Part shown: in pieces, positions 1-11,838 of the stretch | How the letters are laid out: every line of letters begins with the position of its first letter | How positions within the stretch are numbered: the first letter of the stretch is position 1 | Virus record (IMG/VR): IMGVR_UViG_3300000059_000035 | Location: 1-11,838 of that record | DNA from: a virus | Lineage: Duplodnaviria; Heunggongvirae; Uroviricota; Caudoviricetes | DNA: 11,838 nt | Strand: one strand, 5' to 3' | Position numbers and translations under genes: made by a program | The notes under the pieces: generated by a model | The model's input: the letters and a program-made list of their open reading frames with translations, nothing else | What the model was told of the DNA's origin: nothing | The model's database searches: none

Positions 1-1
1 C

Positions 2-3000
2 CTGAAAGTCGTCGATGGCATTCTGGTATCTCCGGACGATTACGAAGGTAAGGACGGGGTATTTACCGGCTATCAGCTACGAACCGTAAACGGCAAAAAC
101 GGGAATGAGTTCAAGAAGGCCAACAATAAAGACGGCTTCCTGAACCAGTTAGAAAACTACCTGAACGGTGTTAAACCGCGTGGGCAGAACGCTAACGAGT
201 ACCTGGATAAAATTGCTCAACTGGAAGTTAGTTTTAACGACTGGTTACGCACCCACCCGCAGGCGGATCAGATAGCCCGCGAGTATAACGACGCATTCAA
301 TGGCTTCATTCCGTTCACGCACTCTAACGCACCGCTTGGCCTGGAAGGGATTAGTGGAAAGCGCATTCCTCTGACTTATCAGAATGAAGAAGTTCGGCGC
401 TTGTCAGAAGATGGGCGCGGCATCATGGGATTTGGTACCGGGCTGGGTAAAACCACGACCGCGCTTGCGCTTGAGGCGTATAACTTCGAAACAGGTCGCA
501 CTAAACGCACGTGTATTGTTGTTCCGAAGGCGGTTTATCAGAACTGGTATCACGAGGCACAGAGCTTCTACAGTGCTGATGCCTTCGCAAATATGATGTT
601 TATCGGTCTGGATGAAGTTCGTGATGAAGACGGCAATATTCTGACCGCGCCGGTGCTTGATGAAAATGGCGAACCCCGCCTCGACAGTAACGGGCAGCCT
701 CTTACCAGAAATGTTGTGAAAGAGTCCGCCAGCGCCGTTATCGTTCAGCGCATGAACATGATCCCGTCGTCAAATTGGCGAACGGTCATCATGACAAAAG
801 AACAATTCGCGTCTATCCCGCTACGAGAAAAAACCATCGAGGAGAACTCACAGCAAGCTGTCTTTAATGCTGTGGAAATGGGGCGTCTTGACCTGGCGTC
901 TGGTAAACACCGTGATGCGCAGAAGAAGAACAAGATTAAGGATCAGGCCGCGGATACCGGTACAACGAAGAAGCAGAATATCCCGTACTTTGAGGATATG
1001 AACTTCGATAGCGTGATTGCCGACGAGGGGCATAACTACCGCAACTCCTTTAATGCCGGGCGTGAAGCGGGACAACTGGCATATTTGCCTAACCCGGCAG
1101 TATCCAAGATGGCCCGCGACATGGCTGTAAAAGCTGCGTACATGATGAAACGCAACAACGGGCGTGGTGTAGTCATGCTGACGGCAACACCGCTGGTGAA
1201 CAGTCCGATTGATGCCTTCAACATGCTGTCTACTGTCATTCCGCAGGAAGAGTGGATGCGCATGGGCATCATTACGCCTGATGATTTCGTTCGTGTGTTT
1301 GGTAAAACAGCCACAGTTCAGGTCCAGAAAATTTCCGGGGAAGTGGAAGAGAAGCAGGGGCTGGTTGGCTTCCAGAACCTTGATGGCCTGCGTGGTATTT
1401 TCCATCGCTGGACTACTCTGAAGACTGCTGCGGACGTCGGGGCGACGGTTAAAATCCCTGATATTGTCGAGAATACCTTGCAGATCCCGATGACAGGGGA
1501 GCAGGAGGCTGCTTATGAAGAGCTTCGTAAGCGTGCACAGGAGTTAAGTAGTAAAGATGCGCTGACGGTTGATGAAAACGGGCATATCACAAACGAAAAA
1601 CCGGATGATTTCATCTTCTCCATCATCCGCGACATGGATAAGGTTGCTATAGATCCGGATCTGTATGCCAGTGCGATTACATTCCAGTTCCCCGTTGAGC
1701 TTGCAGACAAGGTAAAAGCTATTGCTGATGCCCTGCCAAAAGTAGCTGGCGGTAAAGTGGCAGATGATGCAGACGAGGCCGAAGAAGACGGCGCTGGTGG
1801 GCTGGTTAGTACGCGCACCAGTAAGGTAGTGAAGACCACCTTTAGTGAACATCCGGCGCATGTTGAAATACGTGCCAGCATTGAACTGGAAGCTGAAATA
1901 CTGAAGGCCATTGCTGCCGCCGGGATTGATCTGCAGCAGGTATCACACCCCATCCCGCCGAAGTATGCCGCGCTGATCGAAAACCTTCGTGAAGGTCTGA
2001 AGAACGGTAAACAAATTGTCTTCATTGATGAAAAAGCCCAGCACCAGAAGCTGCGCCGTATTATCGCCAGTGCACTGCAAATGCCGGAGCAGGAGATAGG
2101 CATTATCAATGCGACGACCGTTAGCCAGGCTGGCGGCATCAAGCTGAAGAAGGTGAATAAGCCGACTGAACCTACTCCGAATAAAAACGGTGAATACAAA
2201 GAAGGGGCATGGGAAACCTACTACAGCAAACTTGCCCAATATGAGGATTATCTCTCAGCTAAAAATGATGCTGGCCTTGAGGGTATGGAAGGCATTGCCG
2301 CCGACTATAACGAAGGGCGCACGCGCATCATTATCTGTAACAAGAAGGCTGAAGTAGGTATTAACCTGCATATCGGGACAACCGATATCCACCACCTGAC
2401 ACTACCCTGGACACCAGCCAGTATCGACCAACGAAATGGGCGCGGTGCGCGCGTAGGTTCACCGCAAGAGAAGGTCAATGTTCACTACTATTGTGGCAAA
2501 GGCACATTCGACGACTTCCGTCTGGATACGCTGAAACGTAAGAAAGACTGGATCAAGATGGTGATGACCTCCGATATGTCAGAGATCGCCAATGGTGATG
2601 CGGATGATGCTGATGAACGCGCCATTATGCTGGCGGCAAACCCGGAAGAACGCCGCGCAATCATGGCTCGCCAGGCGCAAGAGCGTGAAGAACGTCTGAA
2701 ACTGAAAGCACAGCGCGAGGCCAACAATGCTCTCGATATCTACCTAAAAGCGGCAAACGCCGCCGGAAAAGATATCGGCATGATGGAGACAGAACTGAAA
2801 AGCGCGATGGAGCAGATAGAGTATTACCAGCGCAATCTTGACGACCTGATAAAAGCGGGCACGAACAGGAATGGGCAAAAATACGCGCTTGAGCAGTTGA
2901 GTAGCTACAGAAAACGTGCGCGGGTGCTGCGGTTTGCGATCACCAGGGCAAAAGACGCGGATACCATAATGAAACGCTCTCGTGGTGATGTGGAGCGCGC

Positions 3001-4735
3001 TATTAAGTCTGGTGTGCTGGATATCAGTATCGATGTTATTCAGAACCCACAGGAATATATGCGCACTGACAAGAATATCCTGTTGCATAAAGGTAGTTAT
3101 TACCGTGCAGTCATTGATGATCGCGAAACAACAGCGATTGTCCGGGTGGAAAAAATTGACGGTGAAAAAGCACAGTACATCTGCCGTATCGCCTGGCTGG
3201 ATAGAGCAAGTCGTTACGCTCGATCACCGGGGTCAATCGTTACATTGCCGTTTGACTCTGTGATTGAAGCGGTAACTTTTGAAGAGGGGGTAGCTGAATC
3301 GCGCGCAACGGCTGCGCGTGGTGTTCAGTGCCACCAGCTATCAACAATACTTACTCGCGATCAGTTCTATGATGCTATTCGCAATGGGGTAATGAATGTT
3401 ATTGCTGGTAAACCTGGTAATGCATGGGGCGGTGGGTCAGCTATTAAATACTGGGCATATCGCACAGATGATGGTCAGATCGCGCTGTCATCGGCCTATG
3501 ATGGCGTGATAGGCCAAAAAATCGGGCGAGCATCGGATATAGCACCTGAACGATGGATATATCCAGATGGCAACGATGAGGCGCTGAAGCGTGAAGTGGC
3601 AAAAATACAAGCCAGTGATAACCCGCTGAATATCGTGGACGGAGAGGGATTCCTCCAGGCATTGTATGGGTATGATTACATCCAGGGAATGCAGGCATGG
3701 GGCGCACAGGCAACGATGGATGATGTTGCCAAGGAGTTCGAAAACTGGATGGCTGGGCGTGGTCTGTCAGGTCGTTCGCTTAATAAAGTCACTTCTGAAG
3801 ATATTCTTAGCCTGTTCCGCAAACCGTCCGGAGAAGGTCTGGAATCATTCTGGAGGACCGTGCTGGCATACCGTTTATTCCAGGGCAGGATGAAAGCCTT
3901 TAGCAATATCGATGATATTGAACGGATGTTTAATCAGGTCAAGATAGCGAAAATTAAGACGAAGATCGAAAAAACACGTTCTGCGCTGGTGGCCTGGCGC
4001 GATGCATTGTTTGAGCAATATAAATCACTCAGTGATGCAGATGGATGGGCGGCACTGGAACAGTTGGCGAATAATGGGGTAGATGGAGCGAAACTCGCCA
4101 TTGTCCAGGCTGATAACCCCCTGGAATCACCGGCAGCACAGTGGATTAAGGTGGGGGCTGTCATCAATGCATTTGATGAAAAACACATTAGTAAGGACGA
4201 TTTTGCTGATGCTGTTTCTGTTAATCGCCTGGTAGAAATGGCTACCCGCCGCGCCCGTGAGTTGAAAGACGGTGACTATGTGAATGAGTTGCCGGATGCG
4301 CTCAAATCAGCAACGTGGCAAGACTATGTATCGCTGAAAAACGGCGGGGCCACCGAATCAGAGATCGCGGAAAGGCTTGAACAGGCTGAAAGCAAAAGAG
4401 AAGAGCAGGCGGCAGTGGCAGAAGCCAGAGCTGATGAAGCGGCGAATGATGACTATATCATTGTGGTTAATGATAAGCCGATTCGCGCTAAGGCGCGTGT
4501 TCGCGGGCGCTGGTGGAGCGTCAGCGAGGACGTTGGCGCGGTTTATCTCATTGCCGACCAACCAGGTTCCTCGACAATACGGAACGCCAAAGACGCGATT
4601 AAGAAGATTGGCGGGCGTTTCTGGAATTTTGAAGTGAATCCGGTCGCGGATGTGGACTTTGACCGTCCGGCGTGGATGGTATCTACGCGTTACTCGGTAG
4701 ATGAACTGCGTAAAATAATCGCCGATGCGGCTTAA
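2..4735 (+). CDS. Giant multidomain protein, 5'-truncated by the window edge (1578 codons visible); SF2 DEGH-box helicase core followed by a ~750-aa C-terminal region of unknown function
   Basis: Frame 2 is open from position 2 through the TTG at 401 where the ORF track begins (I walked every codon; no stop), ending at TAA 4733-4735. Walker A GFGTGLGKTT at 428-460, DEGH box at 1022-1033, LTATP (motif III-like) at 1178-1192, motif VI QRNGRGARVG at 2429-2458. Acidic tract DDADEAEEDG and a charged coiled-coil-like segment (ERRAIMARQAQEREERLKLK). No convincing start or RBS in-window, so the N-terminus lies upstream. Confidence 0.85.
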   Translation: MKVVDGILVSPDDYEGKDGVFTGYQLRTVNGKNGNEFKKANNKDGFLNQLENYLNGVKPRGQNANEYLDKIAQLEVSFNDWLRTHPQADQIAREYNDAFNGFIPFTHSNAPLGLEGISGKRIPLTYQNEEVRRLSEDGRGIMGFGTGLGKTTTALALEAYNFETGRTKRTCIVVPKAVYQNWYHEAQSFYSADAFANMMFIGLDEVRDEDGNILTAPVLDENGEPRLDSNGQPLTRNVVKESASAVIVQRMNMIPSSNWRTVIMTKEQFASIPLREKTIEENSQQAVFNAVEMGRLDLASGKHRDAQKKNKIKDQAADTGTTKKQNIPYFEDMNFDSVIADEGHNYRNSFNAGREAGQLAYLPNPAVSKMARDMAVKAAYMMKRNNGRGVVMLTATPLVNSPIDAFNMLSTVIPQEEWMRMGIITPDDFVRVFGKTATVQVQKISGEVEEKQGLVGFQNLDGLRGIFHRWTTLKTAADVGATVKIPDIVENTLQIPMTGEQEAAYEELRKRAQELSSKDALTVDENGHITNEKPDDFIFSIIRDMDKVAIDPDLYASAITFQFPVELADKVKAIADALPKVAGGKVADDADEAEEDGAGGLVSTRTSKVVKTTFSEHPAHVEIRASIELEAEILKAIAAAGIDLQQVSHPIPPKYAALIENLREGLKNGKQIVFIDEKAQHQKLRRIIASALQMPEQEIGIINATTVSQAGGIKLKKVNKPTEPTPNKNGEYKEGAWETYYSKLAQYEDYLSAKNDAGLEGMEGIAADYNEGRTRIIICNKKAEVGINLHIGTTDIHHLTLPWTPASIDQRNGRGARVGSPQEKVNVHYYCGKGTFDDFRLDTLKRKKDWIKMVMTSDMSEIANGDADDADERAIMLAANPEERRAIMARQAQEREERLKLKAQREANNALDIYLKAANAAGKDIGMMETELKSAMEQIEYYQRNLDDLIKAGTNRNGQKYALEQLSSYRKRARVLRFAITRAKDADTIMKRSRGDVERAIKSGVLDISIDVIQNPQEYMRTDKNILLHKGSYYRAVIDDRETTAIVRVEKIDGEKAQYICRIAWLDRASRYARSPGSIVTLPFDSVIEAVTFEEGVAESRATAARGVQCHQLSTILTRDQFYDAIRNGVMNVIAGKPGNAWGGGSAIKYWAYRTDDGQIALSSAYDGVIGQKIGRASDIAPERWIYPDGNDEALKREVAKIQASDNPLNIVDGEGFLQALYGYDYIQGMQAWGAQATMDDVAKEFENWMAGRGLSGRSLNKVTSEDILSLFRKPSGEGLESFWRTVLAYRLFQGRMKAFSNIDDIERMFNQVKIAKIKTKIEKTRSALVAWRDALFEQYKSLSDADGWAALEQLANNGVDGAKLAIVQADNPLESPAAQWIKVGAVINAFDEKHISKDDFADAVSVNRLVEMATRRARELKDGDYVNELPDALKSATWQDYVSLKNGGATESEIAERLEQAESKREEQAAVAEARADEAANDDYIIVVNDKPIRAKARVRGRWWSVSEDVGAVYLIADQPGSSTIRNAKDAIKKIGGRFWNFEVNPVADVDFDRPAWMVSTRYSVDELRKIIADAA

Positions 4736-4746
4736 CAGATAAGGAG

Positions 4747-4764
4747 CGGCCCCAGCCGGGGCCG
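4747..4764 (+). other. GC-rich hairpin (7-bp stem CGGCCCC/GGGGCCG, 4-nt loop) between an AAGGAG Shine-Dalgarno (4741-4746) and the ATG at 4772
   Basis: Perfect inverted repeat read directly; no U-tract follows, so it is not a canonical intrinsic terminator. Confidence 0.6.
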
Positions 4765-4771
4765 GATTTGA

Positions 4772-5206
4772 ATGACGACATTAATTGACACTGTAAAACC
4801 GACGGAATCCTACCTTGAGGATATTTTGCCGCAGGCGCTCAATGGCAGGAGTGAAGAGGCGTTTCTGGATGCATATCTGGATGGTATGGTGGAAAGGCTG
4901 AAACGAGATCCACAGCTTTATCACCTTTATGGCCCGTGGTGGCCTGCGCTTAAAACGTTATTGCTGGAGCGCGGCGACATATCATTTGGACAAGTTGTAG
5001 ATAGTGATGTGGCAGAGATCTACAAAATGAGTCGCCCGGCGCTTACGGTTTTAGCCGGGCATCTGTATTCAAGCGATCGCCTGGAAAATGACGCGGTATA
5101 CAATCCCGTTCATGCTCTGGAAGTCGCGCCTTATGCTGATGATACAGAGCCATATGTGTACACAAGTTACGACGAGTCGATAGAGAAATATCGAATCATG
5201 GGGTAG
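4772..5206 (+). CDS. Hypothetical acidic protein, 144 aa
   Basis: ATG ORF 36 nt downstream of the giant gene stop; about 25 D/E versus 12 K/R by my count; stop TAG 5204-5206 lies 2 nt before the next ATG. Confidence 0.6.
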   Translation: MTTLIDTVKPTESYLEDILPQALNGRSEEAFLDAYLDGMVERLKRDPQLYHLYGPWWPALKTLLLERGDISFGQVVDSDVAEIYKMSRPALTVLAGHLYSSDRLENDAVYNPVHALEVAPYADDTEPYVYTSYDESIEKYRIMG

Positions 5207-5208
5207 CT

Positions 5209-5469
5209 ATGCGAAAGAATCGTAGGTTTACGATCGACGACTTAAAAGCGTACTCACAAGGGAAGGGATACGCCCTTGAATACCACCGTTATAAGCGGGT
5301 ATTTACCCTGCGGCATATAGAAAACCCTTCGAAATGGGGATGGATTTATTTTCCGCACACTGACGATAAGCTGGTGGGCCTTGTTGATGATTTATCCTAT
5401 GAAGGATGGATGATCGCTATCGACAAGGCGGTTACAGAAATTAACGAACCGGATAAAATAAACCATTAA
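5209..5469 (+). CDS. Hypothetical protein, 86 aa
   Basis: ATG at 5209 is 2 nt after the upstream stop (TAGCTATG), suggesting translational coupling; same strand and context. No recognisable motif. Confidence 0.5.
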   Translation: MRKNRRFTIDDLKAYSQGKGYALEYHRYKRVFTLRHIENPSKWGWIYFPHTDDKLVGLVDDLSYEGWMIAIDKAVTEINEPDKINH

Positions 5470-5473
5470 AAAT

Positions 5474-5513
5474 AACAAGTTGGGTAAATGACATACAATT
5501 TACCCGGCTTGTT
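5474..5513 (+). other. Long hairpin just after the 86-aa gene (16-bp stem with two G-U pairs, 8-nt loop); possible terminator or RNA stabiliser lacking a U-tract
   Basis: AACAAGTTGGGTAAAT (5474-5489) pairs with ATTTACCCGGCTTGTT (5498-5513); core GGGTAAAT/ATTTACCC is a perfect 8-bp inverted repeat. Confidence 0.5.
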
Positions 5514-5592
5514 GACCCGCATCACCATTTACTCTAAAAACAAGTCCGACCTGTTGCATCCGCCTATCTCTTTAGTAGTATTTCCCCCGGTT

Positions 5593-5620
5593 TTGATAAA
5601 ACTAACGCTCTTGTTATTAT
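5593..5620 (+). promoter_or_regulatory. Candidate sigma70-type promoter (-35 TTGATA, 16-bp spacer, -10 TATTAT)
   Basis: TTGATA at 5593-5598 and TATTAT at 5615-5620, about 35 nt upstream of the VRR-NUC ORF start. Confidence 0.4.
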
Positions 5621-5644
5621 CGTGATCATGATTTCAGGAAGTTT

Positions 5645-5654
5645 GTGTTAGAAA
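5645..5654 (+). promoter_or_regulatory. Copy of the recurring GTGTTAGAAA motif, ending 1 nt before the TTG start at 5656
   Basis: Exact 10-mer shared with 7945-7954 and 8095-8104. Confidence 0.4.
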
Positions 5655-5655
5655 T

Positions 5656-6102
5656 TTGATTCGAAGACGCAGGCATCATAGTGCGTATTCTGAAATATCC
5701 CCGCACGCTGCTGCACTAAGAGAGTTAGAAAGAAATCCTGACTTACTAAAAAGGAATTACGAACATTACGAACAGGTTCGCGTTCTGGATTGGCTGTATC
5801 GCAACATGCGATACGTGTATGAGCACACACACTCAACACCGAACGGCGGCCTGAGAGGCAAAAGGACAGCCATTAAGATGGTGGCAGAAGGTCAGAAGAA
5901 GGGCTATCCGGACCTTTCTATTGACCTTGCTCGTGGTGGGTATCACGGAATGCGCATTGAGATGAAGCACGGGAGAAACCGTCTGACTCCCGAACAGCTC
6001 GTCTGGATGACCCGCCTCACGGAAGCAGGCTATTACTGCTTTGAGGCGCGCAGTGCCGATGAAGCCATAAAAGCTATCACGGAATATGTAAATCTTGATT
6101 AA
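5656..6102 (+). CDS. VRR-NUC domain nuclease (PD-(D/E)xK superfamily), 148 aa if the TTG start is used
   Basis: Conserved VRR-NUC-like segments read in the translation: HSTPNGG, GYPDLSI, RIEMKHG (E-x-K), TPEQLVWMTRLTEAGYYCF. Stop TAA 6100-6102. Start is uncertain: the only in-frame start codon before the conserved N-terminal region is TTG at 5656, with weak SD. Confidence 0.7.
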   Translation: MIRRRRHHSAYSEISPHAAALRELERNPDLLKRNYEHYEQVRVLDWLYRNMRYVYEHTHSTPNGGLRGKRTAIKMVAEGQKKGYPDLSIDLARGGYHGMRIEMKHGRNRLTPEQLVWMTRLTEAGYYCFEARSADEAIKAITEYVNLD

Positions 6103-6116
6103 ACGGAGAAATCGTT

Positions 6117-6317
6117 TTGCGTTTACTTAACGTGGCTGAACTTATCCCTGCCGGTGCTAACGTTGTTGCTCGTCGCTGCTCATGGCCTCATTCTTTCTGT
6201 ATAGAGCTTAAAAAGATGGATGATGGGGCATTAGAAGCCCGAAACATAGTTACCGGCGACAAGGTATGCATTACCCCGGAAAGCGCGAAAGCCAATGATT
6301 GGGAGTTTGTTCATTGA
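6117..6317 (+). CDS. Hypothetical small protein, 66 aa (TTG start)
   Basis: GGAG at 6104-6107 lies 9 nt upstream of TTG 6117; stop TGA 6315-6317. No motif recognised; short, so uncertain. Confidence 0.35.
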   Translation: MRLLNVAELIPAGANVVARRCSWPHSFCIELKKMDDGALEARNIVTGDKVCITPESAKANDWEFVH

Positions 6318-6625
6318 GCAGAAAACACCACGTAAATCTGACGTTTGCTGATGACGCCGGAAGAACCAGAAGCATAACCATGAAAGTTGCTTCCAGGAAA
6401 GTAACCGCTCCACTTATACGAGAGGCCGTAAGTGAACTTGAGATGAGTGAGAATGCAGCTCTGTTATCGGTAAGCTGGCTGGGGAAAATGACGGATCAGG
6501 AATACTCGGATGGTATACCCCACGGTGAGCGGCAGATAGTAAAGCGCGCGCTTAGAATTTCAGAGGTAGTTGTCGTACTGATAGCTTTGATTTATATGGC
6601 ATACATGCTACTTCAACACGTCTAA
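6314..6625 (+). CDS. Hypothetical small protein with a C-terminal hydrophobic (probable transmembrane) segment; start uncertain (TTG 6314 or ATG 6380)
   Basis: TTG 6314-6316 overlaps the upstream TGA (TTGA) with GGGAG at 6301-6305; alternative ATG at 6380. C-terminus ISEVVVVLIALIYMAYMLLQHV is strongly hydrophobic. Stop TAA 6623-6625. Confidence 0.4.
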   Translation: MSRKHHVNLTFADDAGRTRSITMKVASRKVTAPLIREAVSELEMSENAALLSVSWLGKMTDQEYSDGIPHGERQIVKRALRISEVVVVLIALIYMAYMLLQHV

Positions 6626-6633
6626 ACGGTCAT

Positions 6634-6660
6634 AAACCCGCCAGTTGGCGGGTTTTTTGT
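6634..6660 (+). terminator. Rho-independent terminator
   Basis: Stem CCCGCC (6637-6642) / GGCGGG (6647-6652), loop AGTT, followed by TTTTTT (6653-6658). Confidence 0.8.
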
Positions 6661-6676
6661 TGCCTGAGTCTTTTTA

Positions 6677-6713
6677 TTGAAATTGCATACTAATAAAATA
6701 TGTTAGAAAACTA
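6677..6713 (+). promoter_or_regulatory. Candidate promoter for the 402-aa gene (-35 TTGAAA, 16-bp spacer, -10 TATGTT) overlapping a TGTTAGAAAACTA motif copy
   Basis: TTGAAA 6677-6682, TATGTT 6699-6704; motif GTTAGAAAACTA at 6702-6713; the ATG at 6735 has an AGGGAA-type SD. Confidence 0.5.
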
Positions 6714-6734
6714 ATTTCAAGAAAGGGAACAAAC

Positions 6735-7943
6735 ATGAGTCAGCAAGTAGAATCATCAAGCCTGGAGATCATCTCAACCGCAATTGAAACGCTGCGGACA
6801 CAAATCGCGCTTATACAGAAACGAAATCCGGGCGATGACCTGTCAAAGCGACTGCATGAGAGCGTCATTGCCACTACAGATAACCTGGTGGCGGAAATCA
6901 ACCAGCTCCTTGATGATGGGGCAGTTGATTACAATAAGCTGGTGGATCAGTTTGAGGAATATCAGCAAGCCGTTAATGATGGCTTGATCCGTTTTTCTCA
7001 AGTCACTGGTGTATCAGCGACAGTTGAAAGCCTGGGGGATGCTGTTAATCAATTTGCCGCGAATATGCGTAATGAGATCGGCAATCTGGAGGCGCGTCTT
7101 GAGCAGGCAAATACACTGCGCAAATCTGCTGAAGTCGATTTGAGTCGTTACAAAAAAGACTATCCGCCAAGCCTGACAAAACGACTGGATGTTGCGGAGA
7201 AAGATAACCGCACGCTGAAAAGAGAGCGTCGGGAACTAAAAGAGCGTTTAACCAAGCTAAATCAGCAATGCGTTGAGTATCAAGGCGAACTCGTCACGCT
7301 GCGTAAAAAGTTAGCAGCGGCGCAGAGCATTATTGAAACATTGAAACGAGAGTGCTCAGAGCTTGGTCATGATCTGAATCGCGCCTGTGGCATGGGGCAA
7401 AGGCCAGAGACATTCCCGCTAATGTATGACGGAAGAGAAGCTATTGCCTATATCCATGAGTTTCCGCATGGTCTGGTCGCGGAGACTGGGCAACGTGGCG
7501 AAGCGTTGCTGACGGCAAATTACCATCAGCAAATCAGAACCAGCCGCCTGCTGACGATGGATGTGATCCCGTCAGTATGGGGAACGCCGCTTTACTACCG
7601 AATTCCTGGCTTCGAAACTGACTGGAATACCGACATAGACGAATGTCTGGCAGATAAAATTATGGCGTACCTTGAAACGGATTTTCCACGCTTGCATCGC
7701 CGGATTATGGACTCTAAGGATGCACCGATCGACGAATTGAAAATGCGTCCAGAGACGTTGGAGGCAATCAAGCAGACTGAGTTTGATACAGTGTTCAGTG
7801 TGGCCTGCATTCCAAGCAGCTTTCATGAAAGCATTCCGTTCATGCAGGGCGATCGACGTCAGGAAATAATTGATGCTTGCCGGGTATGGGCGAACGAGTG
7901 GGATAAGAAGAACGGTGGAGTTGAAAATCTTTACGGGAAATAA
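6735..7943 (+). CDS. Hypothetical protein, 402 aa: N-terminal ~220 aa predicted coiled coil, C-terminal ~180 aa globular domain of unknown function
   Basis: ATG with SD; long ORF; heptad-like charged segments (for example RLDVAEKDNRTLKRERRELKERLTKLNQQCVEYQGELVTLRKKLAAAQ); flanked by a terminator upstream and a palindrome downstream. No catalytic motif recognised. Confidence 0.75.
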   Translation: MSQQVESSSLEIISTAIETLRTQIALIQKRNPGDDLSKRLHESVIATTDNLVAEINQLLDDGAVDYNKLVDQFEEYQQAVNDGLIRFSQVTGVSATVESLGDAVNQFAANMRNEIGNLEARLEQANTLRKSAEVDLSRYKKDYPPSLTKRLDVAEKDNRTLKRERRELKERLTKLNQQCVEYQGELVTLRKKLAAAQSIIETLKRECSELGHDLNRACGMGQRPETFPLMYDGREAIAYIHEFPHGLVAETGQRGEALLTANYHQQIRTSRLLTMDVIPSVWGTPLYYRIPGFETDWNTDIDECLADKIMAYLETDFPRLHRRIMDSKDAPIDELKMRPETLEAIKQTEFDTVFSVACIPSSFHESIPFMQGDRRQEIIDACRVWANEWDKKNGGVENLYGK

Positions 7944-7944
7944 T

Positions 7945-7976
7945 GTGTTAGAAAACTAAAATTATCTTTCTAACAT
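7945..7976 (+). promoter_or_regulatory. Palindromic operator-like site: GTGTTAGAAA - 12 bp - TTTCTAACAT
   Basis: Arms 7945-7954 and 7967-7976 are reverse complements at 9 of 10 positions; it sits 2 nt after the stop codon of the 402-aa gene. Confidence 0.5.
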
Positions 7977-8011
7977 GTTGATTATGGGATTAACTTAACA
8001 TAGAATTTTTC

Positions 8012-8081
8012 GTGCTGGTGGGGAGCTTCCCATGTCGCTTGCGGGTTTGATAGTCACTTCATTGTCTTCCCCCACCAGCAC
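8012..8081. repeat. Long-stem inverted repeat (about 13-bp stem with one bulge, 43-nt interior), tRNA-sized (70 nt)
   Basis: GTGCTGGTGGGGA (8012-8024) pairs with TCCCCCACCAGCAC (8068-8081). Confidence 0.45.
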
Positions 8082-8094
8082 CAAACAAACTTAA

Positions 8095-8104
8095 GTGTTA
8101 GAAA
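8095..8104 (+). promoter_or_regulatory. Copy of the GTGTTAGAAA motif
   Basis: Exact 10-mer; AT-rich flanks. Confidence 0.4.
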
Positions 8105-8246
8105 GTAAATTTTAAGGTAAGGGAAAGCTCCGGCACCGTGCAAATACATGCCCGGCAGGTTTAGTGCGTAAAGTGGTTTCAGCGAGAGCATTTTACGGAG
8201 TAAACGACAGTGACTTGAGCCACGGAAGGTCTTTTTAAGGTGTTCA

Positions 8247-8274
8247 TTGATGATGATCTGGCAGTGAGTATGTT
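8247..8274 (+). promoter_or_regulatory. Candidate promoter (-35 TTGATG, 16-bp spacer, -10 TATGTT) upstream of the small ORF at 8338
   Basis: Same -10 hexamer (TATGTT) and spacer length as the 6677-6704 candidate. Confidence 0.35.
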
Positions 8275-8337
8275 AAGTGGGCCAGGCTGCATCGGGTCAT
8301 CATCAGTGCACATCCTCAACGTTAAGGAGGCGCAGAG

Positions 8338-8529
8338 TTGGGTTTTCCTCTTATTTTGCTGACTCTGAGTCTCCTTAACGTTGCGGTAATGCACCTATGC
8401 GGATGTGGCCTTGCATTGTGTTTTGAAAGAATGGGGGTAAGGCCGGGGATATCCCCAGGGGGAGGCACCCCCGCTGCAACGAACAGCCATAGACGGCAGT
8501 CGAGTGATGAAAACGTGAAAAGACTTTAA
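8338..8529 (+). CDS. Small protein (63 aa) with a hydrophobic N-terminal half; candidate membrane peptide
   Basis: Strong SD AAGGAGG at 8324-8330, 7 nt before TTG 8338; N-terminus GFPLILLTLSLLNVAVMHLCGCGLALCF is hydrophobic, C-terminus polar. Non-ATG start and short length keep confidence low. Confidence 0.35.
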   Translation: MGFPLILLTLSLLNVAVMHLCGCGLALCFERMGVRPGISPGGGTPAATNSHRRQSSDENVKRL

Positions 8530-8606
8530 ACCTCGTTACGGCTGGCGTGGCAAACGCGACAACCGGGATAGGACGGTGACGGGCGGAGAGAGAGCCGCTT
8601 CAAGAT

Positions 8607-8673
8607 AAAAGCCGACTATGGATTCCTTTCTGCGGGCCTTTGAAAGTGAATCTTGCTCAGGCAGTCGGCTTTT
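8607..8673. repeat. Long-stem inverted repeat (perfect 11-bp stem, 45-nt interior), tRNA-sized (67 nt)
   Basis: AAAAGCCGACT (8607-8617) pairs with AGTCGGCTTTT (8663-8673). Confidence 0.45.
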
Positions 8674-8803
8674 ATGTTGATACGTAGCGATAACCGCGAC
8701 AGGCGCGGCGGTAAGTATGGCGGGGTTATTCCTTCCCCGTTGAGGACACCGAGTTGCCAGGTTGACCATACGCCTAAGTGGCAATACCGCGAGTGGGATA
8801 TTT

Positions 8804-8828
8804 GCCCACCTTCGGGTGGGTGTTTTTT
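8804..8828 (+). terminator. Rho-independent terminator
   Basis: Stem CCCACC (8805-8810) / GGTGGG (8815-8820), loop TTCG, followed by TGTTTTTT. Confidence 0.8.
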
Positions 8829-9012
8829 CAGTGTTTTCGTCATGGTTAGCGACTTTGCGGCGGTTTAGAACCCGACCATTAAAGTAAATGCAAACGATGA
8901 TCTGATGATGGTAGCGGCCTAAGAAGCCTGACGCCACGGGGTATGAGTCGTCCCCCGTCAAAAAATCGACCGCAGAGTGTCCCCGTCTGTGTATTAGGGA
9001 ACGGGGAGGCAT

Positions 9013-9089
9013 AACAGGCAAGGGCGCTGGTGTGATTAACCAGATGAATGAGAAGGGGCAGGTCTTTCTGGTCAGCGCCCTTACCTGTT
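9013..9089. repeat. Long-stem inverted repeat (17-bp stem with 1 mismatch, 43-nt interior), tRNA-sized (77 nt)
   Basis: AACAGGCAAGGGCGCTG (9013-9029) pairs with CAGCGCCCTTACCTGTT (9073-9089). Confidence 0.45.
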
Positions 9090-9288
9090 GCGTCCTTCCC
9101 GCGTAACAGCCATTGGTTAATGGCTTTCTGGATAATGTCTTGTAACGGGTATATCCCGTCATGCTGAAGGCGCTAATCACGCTGGAAGCCAGGGTTATGC
9201 ATCCCCTGTTACCGAATTGCAGCCAGGGCGCGGTGCGCCGAAAAGCATACGGAGGTGGAAGCCCTCGCCGGAGACGTACCCGGCAAGT

Positions 9289-9365
9289 GATGGTGTAGCT
9301 CAGTAGGATAGAGCAGCAGCCTTCTAAGCTGTCGGTCGGTGGTTCGAATCCACCCACCATCGCCA
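9289..9365 (+). tRNA. tRNA-Arg (anticodon TCT)
   Basis: Cloverleaf read by hand: acceptor GATGGTG/CACCATC, D-arm GCTC-AGTAGGATA-GAGC, anticodon stem GCAGC/GCTGT with loop CTTCTAA, T-arm GGTGG-TTCGAAT-CCACC, discriminator G, encoded CCA. D-arm and anticodon loop resemble E. coli argU as I recall it. Confidence 0.9.
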
Positions 9366-9370
9366 ATTTA

Positions 9371-9457
9371 GGGGAGTTAGTCCGTAGGGGTAGCGGGGTA
9401 GACTGTAAATCTACTGTCATTGCGACTCGGATGGTTCGACTCCATCACTCCCCACCA
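9371..9457 (+). tRNA. tRNA-Tyr (anticodon GTA), type II with long variable arm
   Basis: Acceptor GGGGAGT/ACTCCCC, anticodon stem GTAGA/TCTAC with loop CTGTAAA, long variable arm TGTCATTGCGACTCG (similar to E. coli tyrT as I recall it), T-arm GATGG-TTCGACT-CCATC, encoded CCA. D-arm pairing is imperfect as drawn by hand. Confidence 0.8.
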
Positions 9458-9461
9458 AATT

Positions 9462-9537
9462 GCCGGTTTAGCTCAGTTGGTAGAGCAGTCGCTTTGTAAG
9501 CGAATGGCCAGCGGTTCAAGTCCGTTAACCGGCACCA
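9462..9537 (+). tRNA. tRNA-Thr (anticodon TGT)
   Basis: Acceptor GCCGGTT/AACCGGC, D-arm GCTC-AGTTGGTA-GAGC, anticodon stem GTCGC/GCGAA with loop TTTGTAA, T-arm AGCGG-TTCAAGT-CCGTT, discriminator A, encoded CCA. Confidence 0.9.
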
Positions 9538-9545
9538 ACACAACA

Positions 9546-9619
9546 GGTAAGGGTATTTTGCGACGTCGGAGATCGCCGTGCTTGGCAGAGGGTTCGAATC
9601 CCTACGAAGTACCCTTACC
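9546..9619 (+). other. tRNA-like remnant or tRNA-sized hairpin (74 nt) directly after the tRNA array; not a canonical tRNA
   Basis: Perfect 10-bp terminal stem GGTAAGGGTA (9546-9555) / TACCCTTACC (9610-9619) enclosing a T-arm-like hairpin AGGG-TTCGAAT-CCCT (9589-9603). Nine extra nt lie between the T-stem and the 3' acceptor strand, and no D-arm or anticodon arm can be drawn. Confidence 0.35.
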
Positions 9620-9767
9620 GTTGTGGTGAATGCGCAGGCTGATGCGCGAAAGACATTGCAGCTATTGCGGAAAAGAGCTGTTCGGCGGGGCAATTAAACG
9701 CCCGTGAGAGTCTGAAATAACCGCAAGCCGGAGATCAGCACCGGTCACCACAACAGCCACTGCTTTG

Positions 9768-9813
9768 GCGGTACCAGTTTGTACACTTGCTTCCGGCTGG
9801 TACCGCTCTTTTT
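9768..9813 (+). terminator. Rho-independent terminator (10-bp stem, 19-nt loop, U-tract)
   Basis: GCGGTACCAG (9768-9777) / CTGGTACCGC (9797-9806) followed by TCTTTTT (9807-9813). Confidence 0.7.
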
Positions 9814-9814
9814 A

Positions 9815-9901
9815 CAAAACAGAGAAGAGCATCACCGGACGACGGGCTCATAACCCAATCCATCCGGGCGGCNGNCACCGCAGGTGTTCTTCTCTGTTTT
9901 G
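9815..9901. repeat. Long-stem inverted repeat (16-bp stem with 1 mismatch, ~55-nt interior) in the leader upstream of the yfdP-like gene
   Basis: CAAAACAGAGAAGAGC (9815-9830) pairs with GTTCTTCTCTGTTTTG (9886-9901); interior contains two N bases (9873, 9875). Confidence 0.4.
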
Positions 9902-9950
9902 TGGAGAAACCAACCGACCTTGCAGGGTCGATATGATNAGGAGCAGCAAA

Positions 9951-10313
9951 ATGGCTAGCGAACGCAGTACTGATGTGCAGGCATTTATCGGGGAGCTGGA
10001 CGGCGGCGTATTTGAAACCAAAATCGGCGCAGTTCTCAGTGAAGTCGCTTCCGGTGTGATGAACACGAAAACCAAAGGTAAGGTCTCACTCAACCTGGAA
10101 ATCGAACCATTTGATGAGAACCGTGTGAAAATCAAACACAAACTCTCATATGTTCGCCCGACTAACCGCGGGAAAATTTCCGAAGAAGACACCACCGAAA
10201 CGCCGATGTATGTCAATCGCGGTGGTCGCCTGACTATTCTGCAGGAAGACCAGGGACAATTACTGACTCTTGCCGGTGAACCTGACGGAAAACTCCGCGC
10301 AGCAGGTCATTAA
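9951..10313 (+). CDS. yfdP: YfdP-like phage protein, 120 aa
   Basis: ATG 9951 preceded by AGGAG (9939-9943, next to an N at 9938); stop TAA 10311-10313. The 120-aa length and its position directly upstream of yfdQ/yfdR-like genes match the CPS-53 arrangement as I recall it. The longer ORF in the track (from 9765) crosses a terminator and N bases, so I reject the extension. Confidence 0.7.
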   Translation: MASERSTDVQAFIGELDGGVFETKIGAVLSEVASGVMNTKTKGKVSLNLEIEPFDENRVKIKHKLSYVRPTNRGKISEEDTTETPMYVNRGGRLTILQEDQGQLLTLAGEPDGKLRAAGH

Positions 10314-10378
10314 TATCGTTCTTAATTAACTGATTATTTATCTCATCACTGAATATCTTTATATAGTGAGGACTTATT

Positions 10379-11203
10379 ATGTCTCAGAACTTAGACGCAA
10401 CCGCAATTAATCAAATCCATGCCCTTATTTCTGCTCAGGGTGTTAATGAAATTATCAGTAAGATTGGTGCCGATGCTGTGGCATTGCCTGAGAATTTCCG
10501 CATTCATGATCTGGAAAAATTTAATTTAAATCGCTTCCGTTTCCGTGGTGCGCTTTCCACTGCCAGCATCGATGACTTTACCCGTTATTCTAAAGATCTT
10601 GCAGATGAAGGCACCCGCTGCTTTATCGATGCCGATAATATGCGTGCCGTCAGTGTGCTTAACCTGGGTACTATTGATGAACCAGGTCACGCAGATAACA
10701 CCGCCACTCTCAAACTGAAAAAGACAGCACCGTTCTCTGCNCTGTTGTCTGTTAANGGCGAGCGTAACTCCCAGAANTCACTGGCAGAATGGATTGAAGA
10801 CTGGGCCGACTACCTTGTGGGCTTTGATGCTAATGGTGACGCCATTCAGGCAACCAAAGCGGCGGCGGCTATCCGTAAAATCACAATTGAAGCGAACCAG
10901 ACCGCTGATTTTGAAGATAATGACTTCAGCGGCAAACGCTCCCTGATGGAGTCTGTCGAAGCGAAGACCAAAGACATTATGCCAGTGGCATTTGAATTTA
11001 AATGCATTCCGTTTGAAGGTCTGAAAGAACGTCCGTTTAAATTACGCCTCAGCATTATCACTGGCGATCGTCCGGTACTGGTTCTGCGCATTATTCAGCT
11101 GGAGGCGGTGCAGGAAGAAATGGCTAACGAATTTCGTGATCTGCTTGTTGAGAAATTCAAAGACAGCAAAGTAGAAACCTTTATTGGTACTTTCACCGCC
11201 TGA
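10379..11203 (+). CDS. yfdQ: YfdQ-like protein (DUF2303 family), 274 aa
   Basis: ATG with SD GAGGA at 10368-10372; 274 aa as in E. coli YfdQ; three codons contain N (10741, 10756, 10777). Stop TGA 11201-11203. Confidence 0.75.
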
Positions 11204-11215
11204 TTTCATTACTGC

Positions 11216-11237
11216 AAATGCCCCTGCGGGGGCATTT
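11216..11237 (+). terminator. Terminator-like hairpin (9-bp stem AAATGCCCC/GGGGCATTT, loop TGCG) with weak U-tract
   Basis: Perfect inverted repeat immediately after the yfdQ stop; followed by ATGG rather than a clean T-run, so it may be an attenuator or partial terminator. Confidence 0.5.
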
Positions 11238-11329
11238 ATGGAAACGTAATTACTCAATAATCGCCGGATGGTGAGGGCTTCCTTTTACCAGAATTCAGCG
11301 CGGTGCAGCGCATATACGTGGAGAACAAA

Positions 11330-11838
11330 ATGTCATTTATTAAAACTTTTTCCGGGAAGCATTTTTATTATGACAGGATAAATAAAGACGACATCGATAT
11401 TAACGATATCGCGGTTTCCCTTTCAAATATCTGTCGCTTTGCCGGTCATCTTTCGCACTTCTACAGCGTCGCCCAACATGCGGTTCTTTGCAGCCAGCTG
11501 GTGCCGCAGGAATTTGCTTTTGAAGCGTTAATGCATGATGCAACAGAAGCGTATTGCCAGGACATTCCCGCACCACTGAAACGCCTTCTTCCTGACTATA
11601 AACGGATGGAAGAAAAAATAGACGCCGTAATCCGTGAGAAATACGGGTTACCTCCTGTTATGAGCACGCCAGTGAAATATGCCGATCTCATCATGCTGGC
11701 AACCGAACGCCGCGATCTCGGGCTTGATGATGGCTCTTTCTGGCCTGTACTGGAAGGCATCCCGGCAACAGAGATGTTCAACGTGATTCCACTGGCACCG
11801 GGTCATGCCTACGGGATGTTTATGGAACGTTTTAACGA
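11330..11838 (+). CDS. yfdR: YfdR-like HD-domain phosphohydrolase (5'-deoxynucleotidase family), 3'-truncated by the window end
   Basis: ATG 11330 with GGAG 8 nt upstream; HD-domain signature residues visible (FAGHLSHF ... ALMHDATEAY); ORF still open at position 11838. Confidence 0.8.
   Translation, partial: MSFIKTFSGKHFYYDRINKDDIDINDIAVSLSNICRFAGHLSHFYSVAQHAVLCSQLVPQEFAFEALMHDATEAYCQDIPAPLKRLLPDYKRMEEKIDAVIREKYGLPPVMSTPVKYADLIMLATERRDLGLDDGSFWPVLEGIPATEMFNVIPLAPGHAYGMFMERFN

Follow-up and report, generated by a model that had tools for sequence, protein, structure and literature searches.

Five of the seven copies of a recurring 8-mer, GTTAGAAA, in an 11,838-nucleotide stretch of viral DNA (IMG/VR record IMGVR_UViG_3300000059_000035, positions 1 to 11,838; hereafter the window) are probably operators of a C1 master repressor of the type encoded by Escherichia phage D6, each operator consisting of one asymmetric site of about 19 bp; we put the probability of this reading at about 0.8. 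The window shares 84% identity with D6, a P1-like plasmid prophage, and 99% with the 94-kb Escherichia marmotae plasmid NZ_CP099353.1, and 120 plasmids in PLSDB, from Escherichia, Salmonella and Shigella hosts, match the region. Judged by these identities, it is part of a D6-like, P1-family phage-plasmid. For P1 itself it is textbook knowledge that a C1 of this type has dispersed, asymmetric operators; what is new here is the recognition sequence, the system being otherwise as in P1, with nothing added conceptually.

The 8-mer lies at 148, 5647, 5724, 6702, 7947 and 8097 on the plus strand and at 7967-7974 on the minus strand, exactly as an earlier note on this DNA had listed, and the same is true of the 10-mer GTGTTAGAAA (5645, 7945 and 8095) and the 12-mer GTTAGAAAACTA (148, 6702 and 7947). 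The excess claimed for it is borne out, with seven copies where 0.31 are expected, a count that 200 dinucleotide-preserving shuffles never reached. With one mismatch allowed there are 12 matches against 8.9 expected; this count is near chance, so that the signal lies in the exact core. The 9-mer TGTTAGAAA singles out five window copies (5646, 6701, 7946, 7967 on the minus strand, and 8096) against 0.11 expected, and the five with cores at 5647, 6702, 7947, 7967 (minus) and 8097 fit a longer asymmetric site of roughly 19 bp, TRTGTTAGAAAAYTAAWTT, which is common to all copies save those in coding sequence. The information profile of this site is itself asymmetric, with TRTGTTAGAAA followed by an AYTAAWTT tail. 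For genome-wide counts the complete D6 genome and the complete E. marmotae plasmid were assembled; GTTAGAAA occurs 13 times in the former and 20 times in the latter, compared with about three copies in first-order Markov simulations. A weight matrix built from the D6 sites, applied with a cut-off of 12 bits, finds 5 matches in the window, 17 in D6 and 19 in the E. marmotae plasmid.

The two remaining copies do not belong to this class. When the D6-site matrix was applied to the flanking bases alone, the five window copies scored between +1.8 and +15.2, while those at 148 and 5724 scored below zero (Table 1), equal to the five background copies of GTTAGAAA in P1 (all P1 motif counts given here cover 58 kb of that genome). 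Copy 148 has neither the upstream TRT nor the downstream TAAWTT, and it is conserved solely within an identical, invariant stretch of darB coding sequence. The place of copy 5724 reads AACTGGAGAAAAA in all six aligned relatives and encodes nearly the same peptide there; the copy is one synonymous spelling of this coding stretch, and the relatives have another. By their sequence context both are coincidences in coding sequence and no operators, and the earlier view of all seven copies as one class stands for the other five and fails for these two.

Table 1. Predicted operators and other features of the window, with late-promoter boxes of D6 in the last row.
Feature	Position	Strand	Score or basis
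Predicted monovalent operator before pmgM, TGTGTTAGAAATTTGATTC	5644-5662 (core 5647-5654)	+	matrix 20.6 bits
Predicted monovalent operator before pmgS, TATGTTAGAAAACTAATTT	6699-6717 (core 6702-6709)	+	matrix 29.4 bits
Predicted bivalent operator, left half	7944-7962 (core 7947-7954)	+	matrix 30.1 bits
Predicted bivalent operator, right half	7959-7977 (core 7967-7974)	-	matrix 16.7 bits
Predicted monovalent operator downstream of promoter and hairpin	8094-8112 (core 8097-8104)	+	matrix 19.8 bits
Sigma-70-like promoter of pmgM unit, TTGATA-16-TATTAT with upstream TG	5593-5620	+	10 of 12 matches, consensus only
Sigma-70-like promoter for pmgS, TTGAAA-16-TATGTT	6677-6704	+	9 of 12 matches
Sigma-70-like promoter heading the non-coding/tRNA unit, TTGATT-17-TAGAAT	7978-8006	+	consensus match
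Intrinsic terminator after pmgR	6634-6655	+	9-bp stem, then T run
Coincidental GTTAGAAA in darB-like helicase gene	148-155	+	flank-only -12.1; total 2.8 bits
Coincidental GTTAGAAA inside pmgM coding sequence	5724-5731	+	flank-only -13.9
Early, apparently non-coding transcription unit	8007-9537	+	control by the 7944-8112 operators predicted
Chi hairpin in that unit	8012-8084
dicF-like segment in that unit	8680-8798
tmRNA-like tag in that unit	8890-8922
Stretch without open reading frames, then tRNA-Arg, tRNA-Tyr and tRNA-Thr genes	tRNAs 9289-9537
darB, 3' part	401-4735		D6 annotation
ulx	4772-5206		D6 annotation
orf13 (86-aa open reading frame)	5209-5469		D6 annotation
pmgM, VRR-NUC protein	about 5656-6102		D6 annotation and Pfam match
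orf11 and pmgR	6117-6625		D6 annotation
pmgS	6735-7943		D6 annotation
AAATCACA-N7-YAnnnT in D6 (L003/L004)	19171, 19215, 25221, 27727, 31511, 38115, 45491, 54124, 72100

Conservation was followed in seven aligned relatives and in 25 IMG/VR contigs, among them L034, a divergent member whose PmgS is 73% identical; a search of genome contigs with PmgS as query returned no relatives. Variable flanks surround the invariant cores at 5647, 6702, 7947 and 8097 in the seven aligned relatives, and the four positions recur in the 25 contigs at -1080/-1088, -33/-38, +1212 and +1362/+1368 from the pmgS start. All contigs that extend far enough have the three positions around pmgS, and all four are kept in L034 (the last at +1393) despite otherwise diverged intergenic DNA. 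The motif thus proved both more frequent than expected genome-wide and conserved at orthologous positions, and neither of the two outcomes that the earlier note had named as counting against it came about.

Each of the five sites adjoins a promoter-like site, in a different arrangement from case to case. The promoter-like site of the pmgM unit, whose -10 and TG are kept in relatives, has its -10 about 24 bp upstream of the pmgM operator. The TGTTAG core of this operator is invariant in the seven aligned relatives and L034 while the flanks diverge, and its position is held in most IMG/VR relatives, although 3 of the 18 distinct patterns listed have a score below 12 bits there. Relatives differ by one base in the length of the A run of the operator, which argues that the site is untranslated and that pmgM starts further downstream. 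The terminator after pmgR, conserved in all relatives including L034, ends the pmgR unit and sets pmgS apart as a unit of its own. The operator before pmgS lies 17 nt ahead of the start codon and overlaps the second (-10) hexamer of the pmgS promoter; the block ACTAATAAAATATGTTAGAAAAYTAAWTT is a conserved island amid diverged intergenic DNA, in L034 as elsewhere. The left half of the bivalent operator begins 1 nt after the pmgS stop codon, is part of inverted repeat I3, and is conserved at its position in all relatives. The right half abuts the -35 hexamer at 7978; its core is intact solely in the window's own clade and is degenerate in the D6 clade. Both hexamers of the promoter that follows are kept in all relatives, L034 having TTGATT and TAAAAT. 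The fifth site lies about 90 nt into the transcript of that promoter and forms, with 7957-7975, a 19-nt inverted repeat (89%) whose arms are 120 nt apart. The operators before pmgM and pmgS and the one at 8094-8112 are single, asymmetric and without an inverted partner. Most sites being of this kind, the suggestion that the copies are half-sites for a dimeric regulator describes them less aptly, and the suggestion that they are operators for a regulator gains support.

The palindrome reported after pmgS is real, with arms 7946-7959 and 7962-7975 that are 86% complementary, and it consists of two complete sites overlapping tail to tail, which is the organization of a bivalent operator. Seven such pairs occur in D6, the E. 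marmotae plasmid and the window, and in all of them the minus core starts exactly 20 nt after the plus core, with the heads pointing outward and the A/T-rich tails overlapping. Oc1ab (Op99ab) and Obanab (Op72ab) of P1 are likewise built from two inverted complete 17-mers, with tails overlapping by 6 bp; the P1 pair, 28 bp in extent, covers the promoter hexamers, whereas the window pair, of 34 bp, is placed just upstream of the -35. Obanab and its promoters stand directly before the ‘dicF-like region’, trnA and trnT of P1, and window positions 8691-9288, just before the tRNA genes, are 87% identical to P1 68736-69347. A homologous dicF-like/tRNA unit thus follows both pairs, and the palindrome at 7944-7977 is therefore the positional counterpart of Op72 (Oban); on sequence comparison it is an Oban rebuilt from sites of D6 specificity. 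Unlike Obanab, it has a second half that is degenerate in members of the D6 clade, and the window adds an operator 120 nt downstream.

The distribution of the sites over complete genomes points to a repressor regulon. In D6, 16 of the 17 matrix sites fall in the 10.2% of the genome left outside annotated genes (binomial P = 2e-15), and one of them lies 27 nt before the start of c1, the repressor gene. Sites of the D6 family precede lpa, repL, both icd-ant modules, ref, hrdC-dmt and pdcB, and others lie at the dut operon next to cre, at gene 23/orf52, at pmgM and pmgS, and in the region after pmgS; the lpa site is bivalent in the E. marmotae plasmid and in an Escherichia fergusonii plasmid. The GenBank record of P1 places C1 operators at the corresponding genes (Oc1ab-e, Olpa, OrepL, Oc4, Oref, Omat and Ossb), and it also annotates as C1 operators O26 and Oppp, which flank pmgL-pmgM, together with OpmgT, Obanab, and OpmgRa and OpmgRb, which lie before pmgR-pmgS and of which it states that the pair ‘controls expression of pmgR and pmgS’. 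P1 C1 is described as recognising 22 operators spread over the genome, with an asymmetric consensus of 17 bp, ATTGCTCTAATAAATTT, and RepL and Lpa are counted among its targets (PMC8546580). From the count, location and gene set of the D6 sites, their number, distribution and targets are therefore those of the P1 C1 regulon.

The likeness extends to the design of the sites. Like the C1 operators of P1 and P7, those of the D6 type are asymmetric (17-19 bp, with an A/T-rich 3' half; within the 17-20 bp or so of P1-type operators), number about 20 on a plasmid-prophage genome of some 90 kb, dispersed near early or lytic promoters and nearly always between genes, and stand in either orientation to the target gene and at variable positions relative to its promoter. 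They share the orthologous targets c1, lpa, repL, icd-ant, ref, dmt, pmgL/M and pmgR/S; the sites at c1, lpa, repL, icd-ant and ref are present in D6 and in the E. marmotae and E. fergusonii plasmids, these genes lying outside the window. A c1 homologue is encoded on the same replicon in D6 and in NZ_CP099353.1. Within P1, OpmgRb lies downstream of its own promoter, as does the window operator at 5644-5662, and Omat, O26, Oppp and OpmgRb are inverted operators, as are some D6 sites.

The recognition sequence is what differs from the P1 and P7 operators. TGTTAGAAA occurs 12 times in D6 and 16 times in the E. marmotae plasmid and is absent from the 58 kb of P1; conversely TGCTCTAAT, with 8 copies in P1, is almost absent from the D6 family (one in D6, none in the E. 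marmotae plasmid), and TGC[AT]CTAAT is found 11 times in P1, once in D6 and not in the window. No match to the ATTGCTCTAATAAATTT consensus is present in the window, and the sites are therefore not of P1 specificity. The repressors differ accordingly in size and sequence: the D6-type C1 has 345 amino acids (NZ_CP099353.1: 2430-3467) and the P1 C1 has 283, and the D6 and P1 proteins are 21% identical (E = 2e-8), compared with 81% between D6 C1 and the C1 of the window's clade (NZ_CP099353.1). Together, the differing sites and the divergence of the C1 proteins imply a separate immunity specificity. With a C1 at 69% identity, the E. fergusonii plasmid retains the motif ahead of c1, beside cre and, in bivalent form, ahead of lpa, and Pantoea and Citrobacter plasmids with C1 proteins about 30% identical are without it. 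Across these replicons the presence of the motif appears to track the type of C1 encoded, as a correlation.

Several points weigh against assigning the sites to C1. The link to this protein rests on analogy with P1 and on co-occurrence, and the c1 gene itself lies elsewhere on the replicon, not in the window. Aligning the motif with the P1 operator consensus gave no convincing match, and homology of the D6-type and P1 sites is therefore not claimed. The promoters of the window were identified by consensus alone, and since relatives do not keep the -35 assigned to pmgS, the exact promoter there is uncertain. The conserved TAAWTT tail is -10-like, and the sites may serve as promoter element and operator at once. 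Binding of C1 to its operators is experimentally established for P1 and predicted for the D6 type; that C1 is the protein bound here, in what stoichiometry, and by which mode it would block each promoter we infer from the parallel with P1.

The principal alternative is that another regulator holds the same regulon, the sites being operators of a second immunity protein or early-gene regulator of the phage. D6-like replicons do encode other helix-turn-helix proteins, Pfam recognises no domain, and so none for DNA binding, in either D6 or P1 C1, and the case for C1 as the binder is indirect. We nevertheless consider this unlikely: the genes that bear sites match the P1 C1 regulon gene for gene, including c1 and lpa, the motif follows the encoded C1 type, and no protein of the window has a recognisable DNA-binding domain.

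Less probable again, and largely excluded, is a phage-specific promoter element, which the earlier note had offered as its other reading: either the D6 version of the Lpa-dependent late promoter, or an extended -10 (TGnTAGAAA) or -10 (TAAWTT) of early promoters. Every real site does carry TGT-TAGAAA, most lie just upstream of genes, and the TANNNT-like TAAWTT follows GTTAGAAA after 2 nt, a spacing that recalls the AAGTGACTT-N4-TANNNT which late promoters extracted from P1 read; a conserved box with such a hexamer close behind, recurring genome-wide, is common to both. The P1 late promoters, with their -22 box AAGTNACTT, 4 bp and TANNNT, nevertheless differ in place and direction, since the GTTAGAAA sites are neither upstream of late operons nor consistently oriented towards genes. 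A scan for AAGTNACTT-N4-TANNNT found one perfect match in D6 and none at motif sites, and the sole near-match in the window (7988-8006, two mismatches) is a sequence different from the GTTAGAAA sites. The identification of GTTAGAAA as an Lpa-dependent late promoter was accordingly rejected, as it is not at late operons, not consistently gene-oriented and without a match to the P1 consensus.

What stands upstream of the D6 late structural and lysis operons, without GTTAGAAA, is a candidate late-promoter motif, AAATCACA-N7-YAnnnT, with nine copies in D6, seven in the E. marmotae plasmid and none in the window. These sites lie just upstream of darB, orf16, prt, ddrB, lydA, R, pmgB/sit, gene 23 and mat, and P1 has Lpa-dependent promoters at several of their counterparts: prt (LPpro), lydA (LPdar), R (LPs) and mat (LPmat). 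The D6-type Lpa presumably recognises AAATCACA as its box; its identity of 31% to P1 Lpa fits a changed late-promoter box. With a motif of their own at the late operons, the late promoters are thus separate from GTTAGAAA. Four monovalent D6 sites (4633, 22468, 75981 and 89949), moreover, are inverted relative to the sole gene that they could serve downstream (lpa, repL, orf86 and orf117, respectively), an orientation in which a promoter element cannot work and an operator can; the palindromic pairs have no preferred direction, and the motif precedes the repressor gene c1 itself. Chance, composition or a by-product of coding, with which the coding copies at 148 and 5724 (negative flank scores, one of them unconserved) and the background copies in P1 agree, is refuted for the five intergenic copies by the 8-mer and 9-mer excess, the non-genic location of the D6 sites and the invariant cores within diverged flanks, and is the least credible account of all.

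Under C1 control, the sites would work as follows. In the prophage state C1 would occupy them and block host RNA polymerase at early promoters, silencing in the window the pmgM unit, pmgS and the non-coding/tRNA unit, and elsewhere lpa, repL, ant and c1 itself. At pmgS the operator would cover the -10 and the start region, and at the non-coding/tRNA unit the bivalent pair would sit against the -35. The operators at 5644 and 8094, downstream of their promoters, could act as roadblocks or possibly as loop anchors, and a repressor-mediated loop between the inverted copies 8094-8112 and 7957-7975 is possible. Once the repressor was inactivated, these units and lpa would be expressed, and Lpa would then activate the AAATCACA late promoters.

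The names of the window genes (Table 1) are taken from the D6 annotation, and the genes are homologues of P1 darB, ulx, pmgM, pmgR and pmgS. The 86-aa open reading frame directly after ulx occupies the place of lxc (bof), which encodes the 82-aa co-repressor of C1 in P1; it has no similarity to Lxc by BLASTP and no Pfam domain, and might be a positional analogue of Lxc. Six N bases (9873, 9875, 9938, 10741, 10756 and 10777) break the open reading frames at 9765-10313 and the DUF2303 gene at 10379-11203; the source assembly is therefore of draft quality in the 9873-10777 part.

The unit behind the bivalent operator appears to be non-coding. No credible open reading frame was found in 8007-9537, where substitutions lack three-base periodicity; NCBI PGAP annotates tRNAs alone in it, and Rfam, at gathering and E-value thresholds, finds the three tRNAs and nothing else. 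A 294-aa open reading frame on the minus strand (8536-9420) was rejected as a gene: it lacks codon periodicity, carries indels in relatives and overlaps the tRNA genes. The unit is more conserved than the neighbouring genes. Its 8100-8680 and 8799-9288 parts (about 1.1 kb) are 82-94% identical to D6 and 84-88% identical to L034, compared with 73% for the PmgS protein there, with indels that are not multiples of three and near-invariant stretches at about 8370-8560 and 8830-9040; these two parts probably comprise one or more structured early RNAs. In its promoter, GATTAACTTAACATAGAAT at 7988-8006 overlaps the -10 and is the near-match to AAGTNACTT-N4-TANNNT mentioned above; the D6 counterpart, AGGTAACTTAACATAGAAT, has one mismatch to the P1 late-promoter pattern, a resemblance that could be a relic or a coincidence.

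The Chi sequence, GCTGGTGG, occurs eight times in the window (1793, 3331 on the minus strand, 3985, 4509, 5370, 6938, 8014, and 8072 on the minus strand) against 0.39 expected, an enrichment exceeding that of GTTAGAAA, and 53 times in 91 kb of D6; Chi enrichment is already known for P1. Between the 7978-8006 promoter and the 8094 operator, the Chi copies at 8014 and 8072, inverted to each other, make up the arms of a hairpin of 73 nt that is conserved and has an RNA minimum free energy of -30.8 kcal/mol (z = -3.0). The 119-bp segment at 8680-8798 is absent from D6, a Shigella plasmid, L034 and a further relative (L018), and is present in P1 as the annotated ‘dicF-like region’. Of 5426 complete E. 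coli genomes, 4130 carry a match to 8694-8790 (90-95% identity); the K-12 match, at about 1.649 Mb, is unannotated and probably lies close to dicF in the Qin prophage. The Rfam DicF model has no match in the segment.

At 8890-8922 (context 8826-9020), GCAAACGATGATCTGATGATGGTAGCGGCCTAA reads ANDDLMMVAA* without a start codon, in a context resembling the resume codon of a transfer-messenger RNA (tmRNA). The frame is 100% identical in P1 (NC_005856, about 68944, where the P1 record has no annotation), D6 (L001 9369) and L034, and the flanking blocks are shared by Cronobacter phage SG01 (ANDDLMLMAA), phage ECBP1 (ANDDVVLMAA), Serratia phage Kevin (ANDNAFLMAA) and Salmonella phage Akira (ANDDVILMAA). 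These four unrelated virulent phages keep the peptide via synonymous changes, and the third bases of the Ala-Ala codons vary. The Rfam tmRNA_permuted model scores below threshold at this place (24 bits, compared with a gathering score of 47), and ARAGORN calls no tmRNA by default and a pseudo-tmRNA at 80% stringency; in other IMG/VR phages with ...FLMAA tags it calls permuted tmRNAs. By sequence, the element may be an unrecognised tmRNA-derived RNA of the P1 family and other enterobacterial phages. It is a doubtful but conceivable extension that the operators at 7944-8112 form a looped switch through which the repressor controls an early non-coding RNA operon including this element; if that were true, and the element a working phage version of the ribosome-rescue RNA, P1-family prophages would use the motif to turn on a tagging system of their own at induction.

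The D6 record annotates no operator features, and a literature search for D6 operators and for the motif string returned nothing relevant; the D6 genome paper lay outside its reach, and an earlier description is possible. As predicted here, the operators give a consensus and a candidate regulon for the D6 group, which is widespread in Escherichia, Salmonella and Shigella. The consensus could be used to predict immunity groups, to split early, repressor-controlled units from late ones, and to design reporters and anti-repressor tests. Taken with the divergence of the C1 proteins, these sites suggest that repressor and operators changed jointly within the P1 supercluster and that the regulon kept its wiring.

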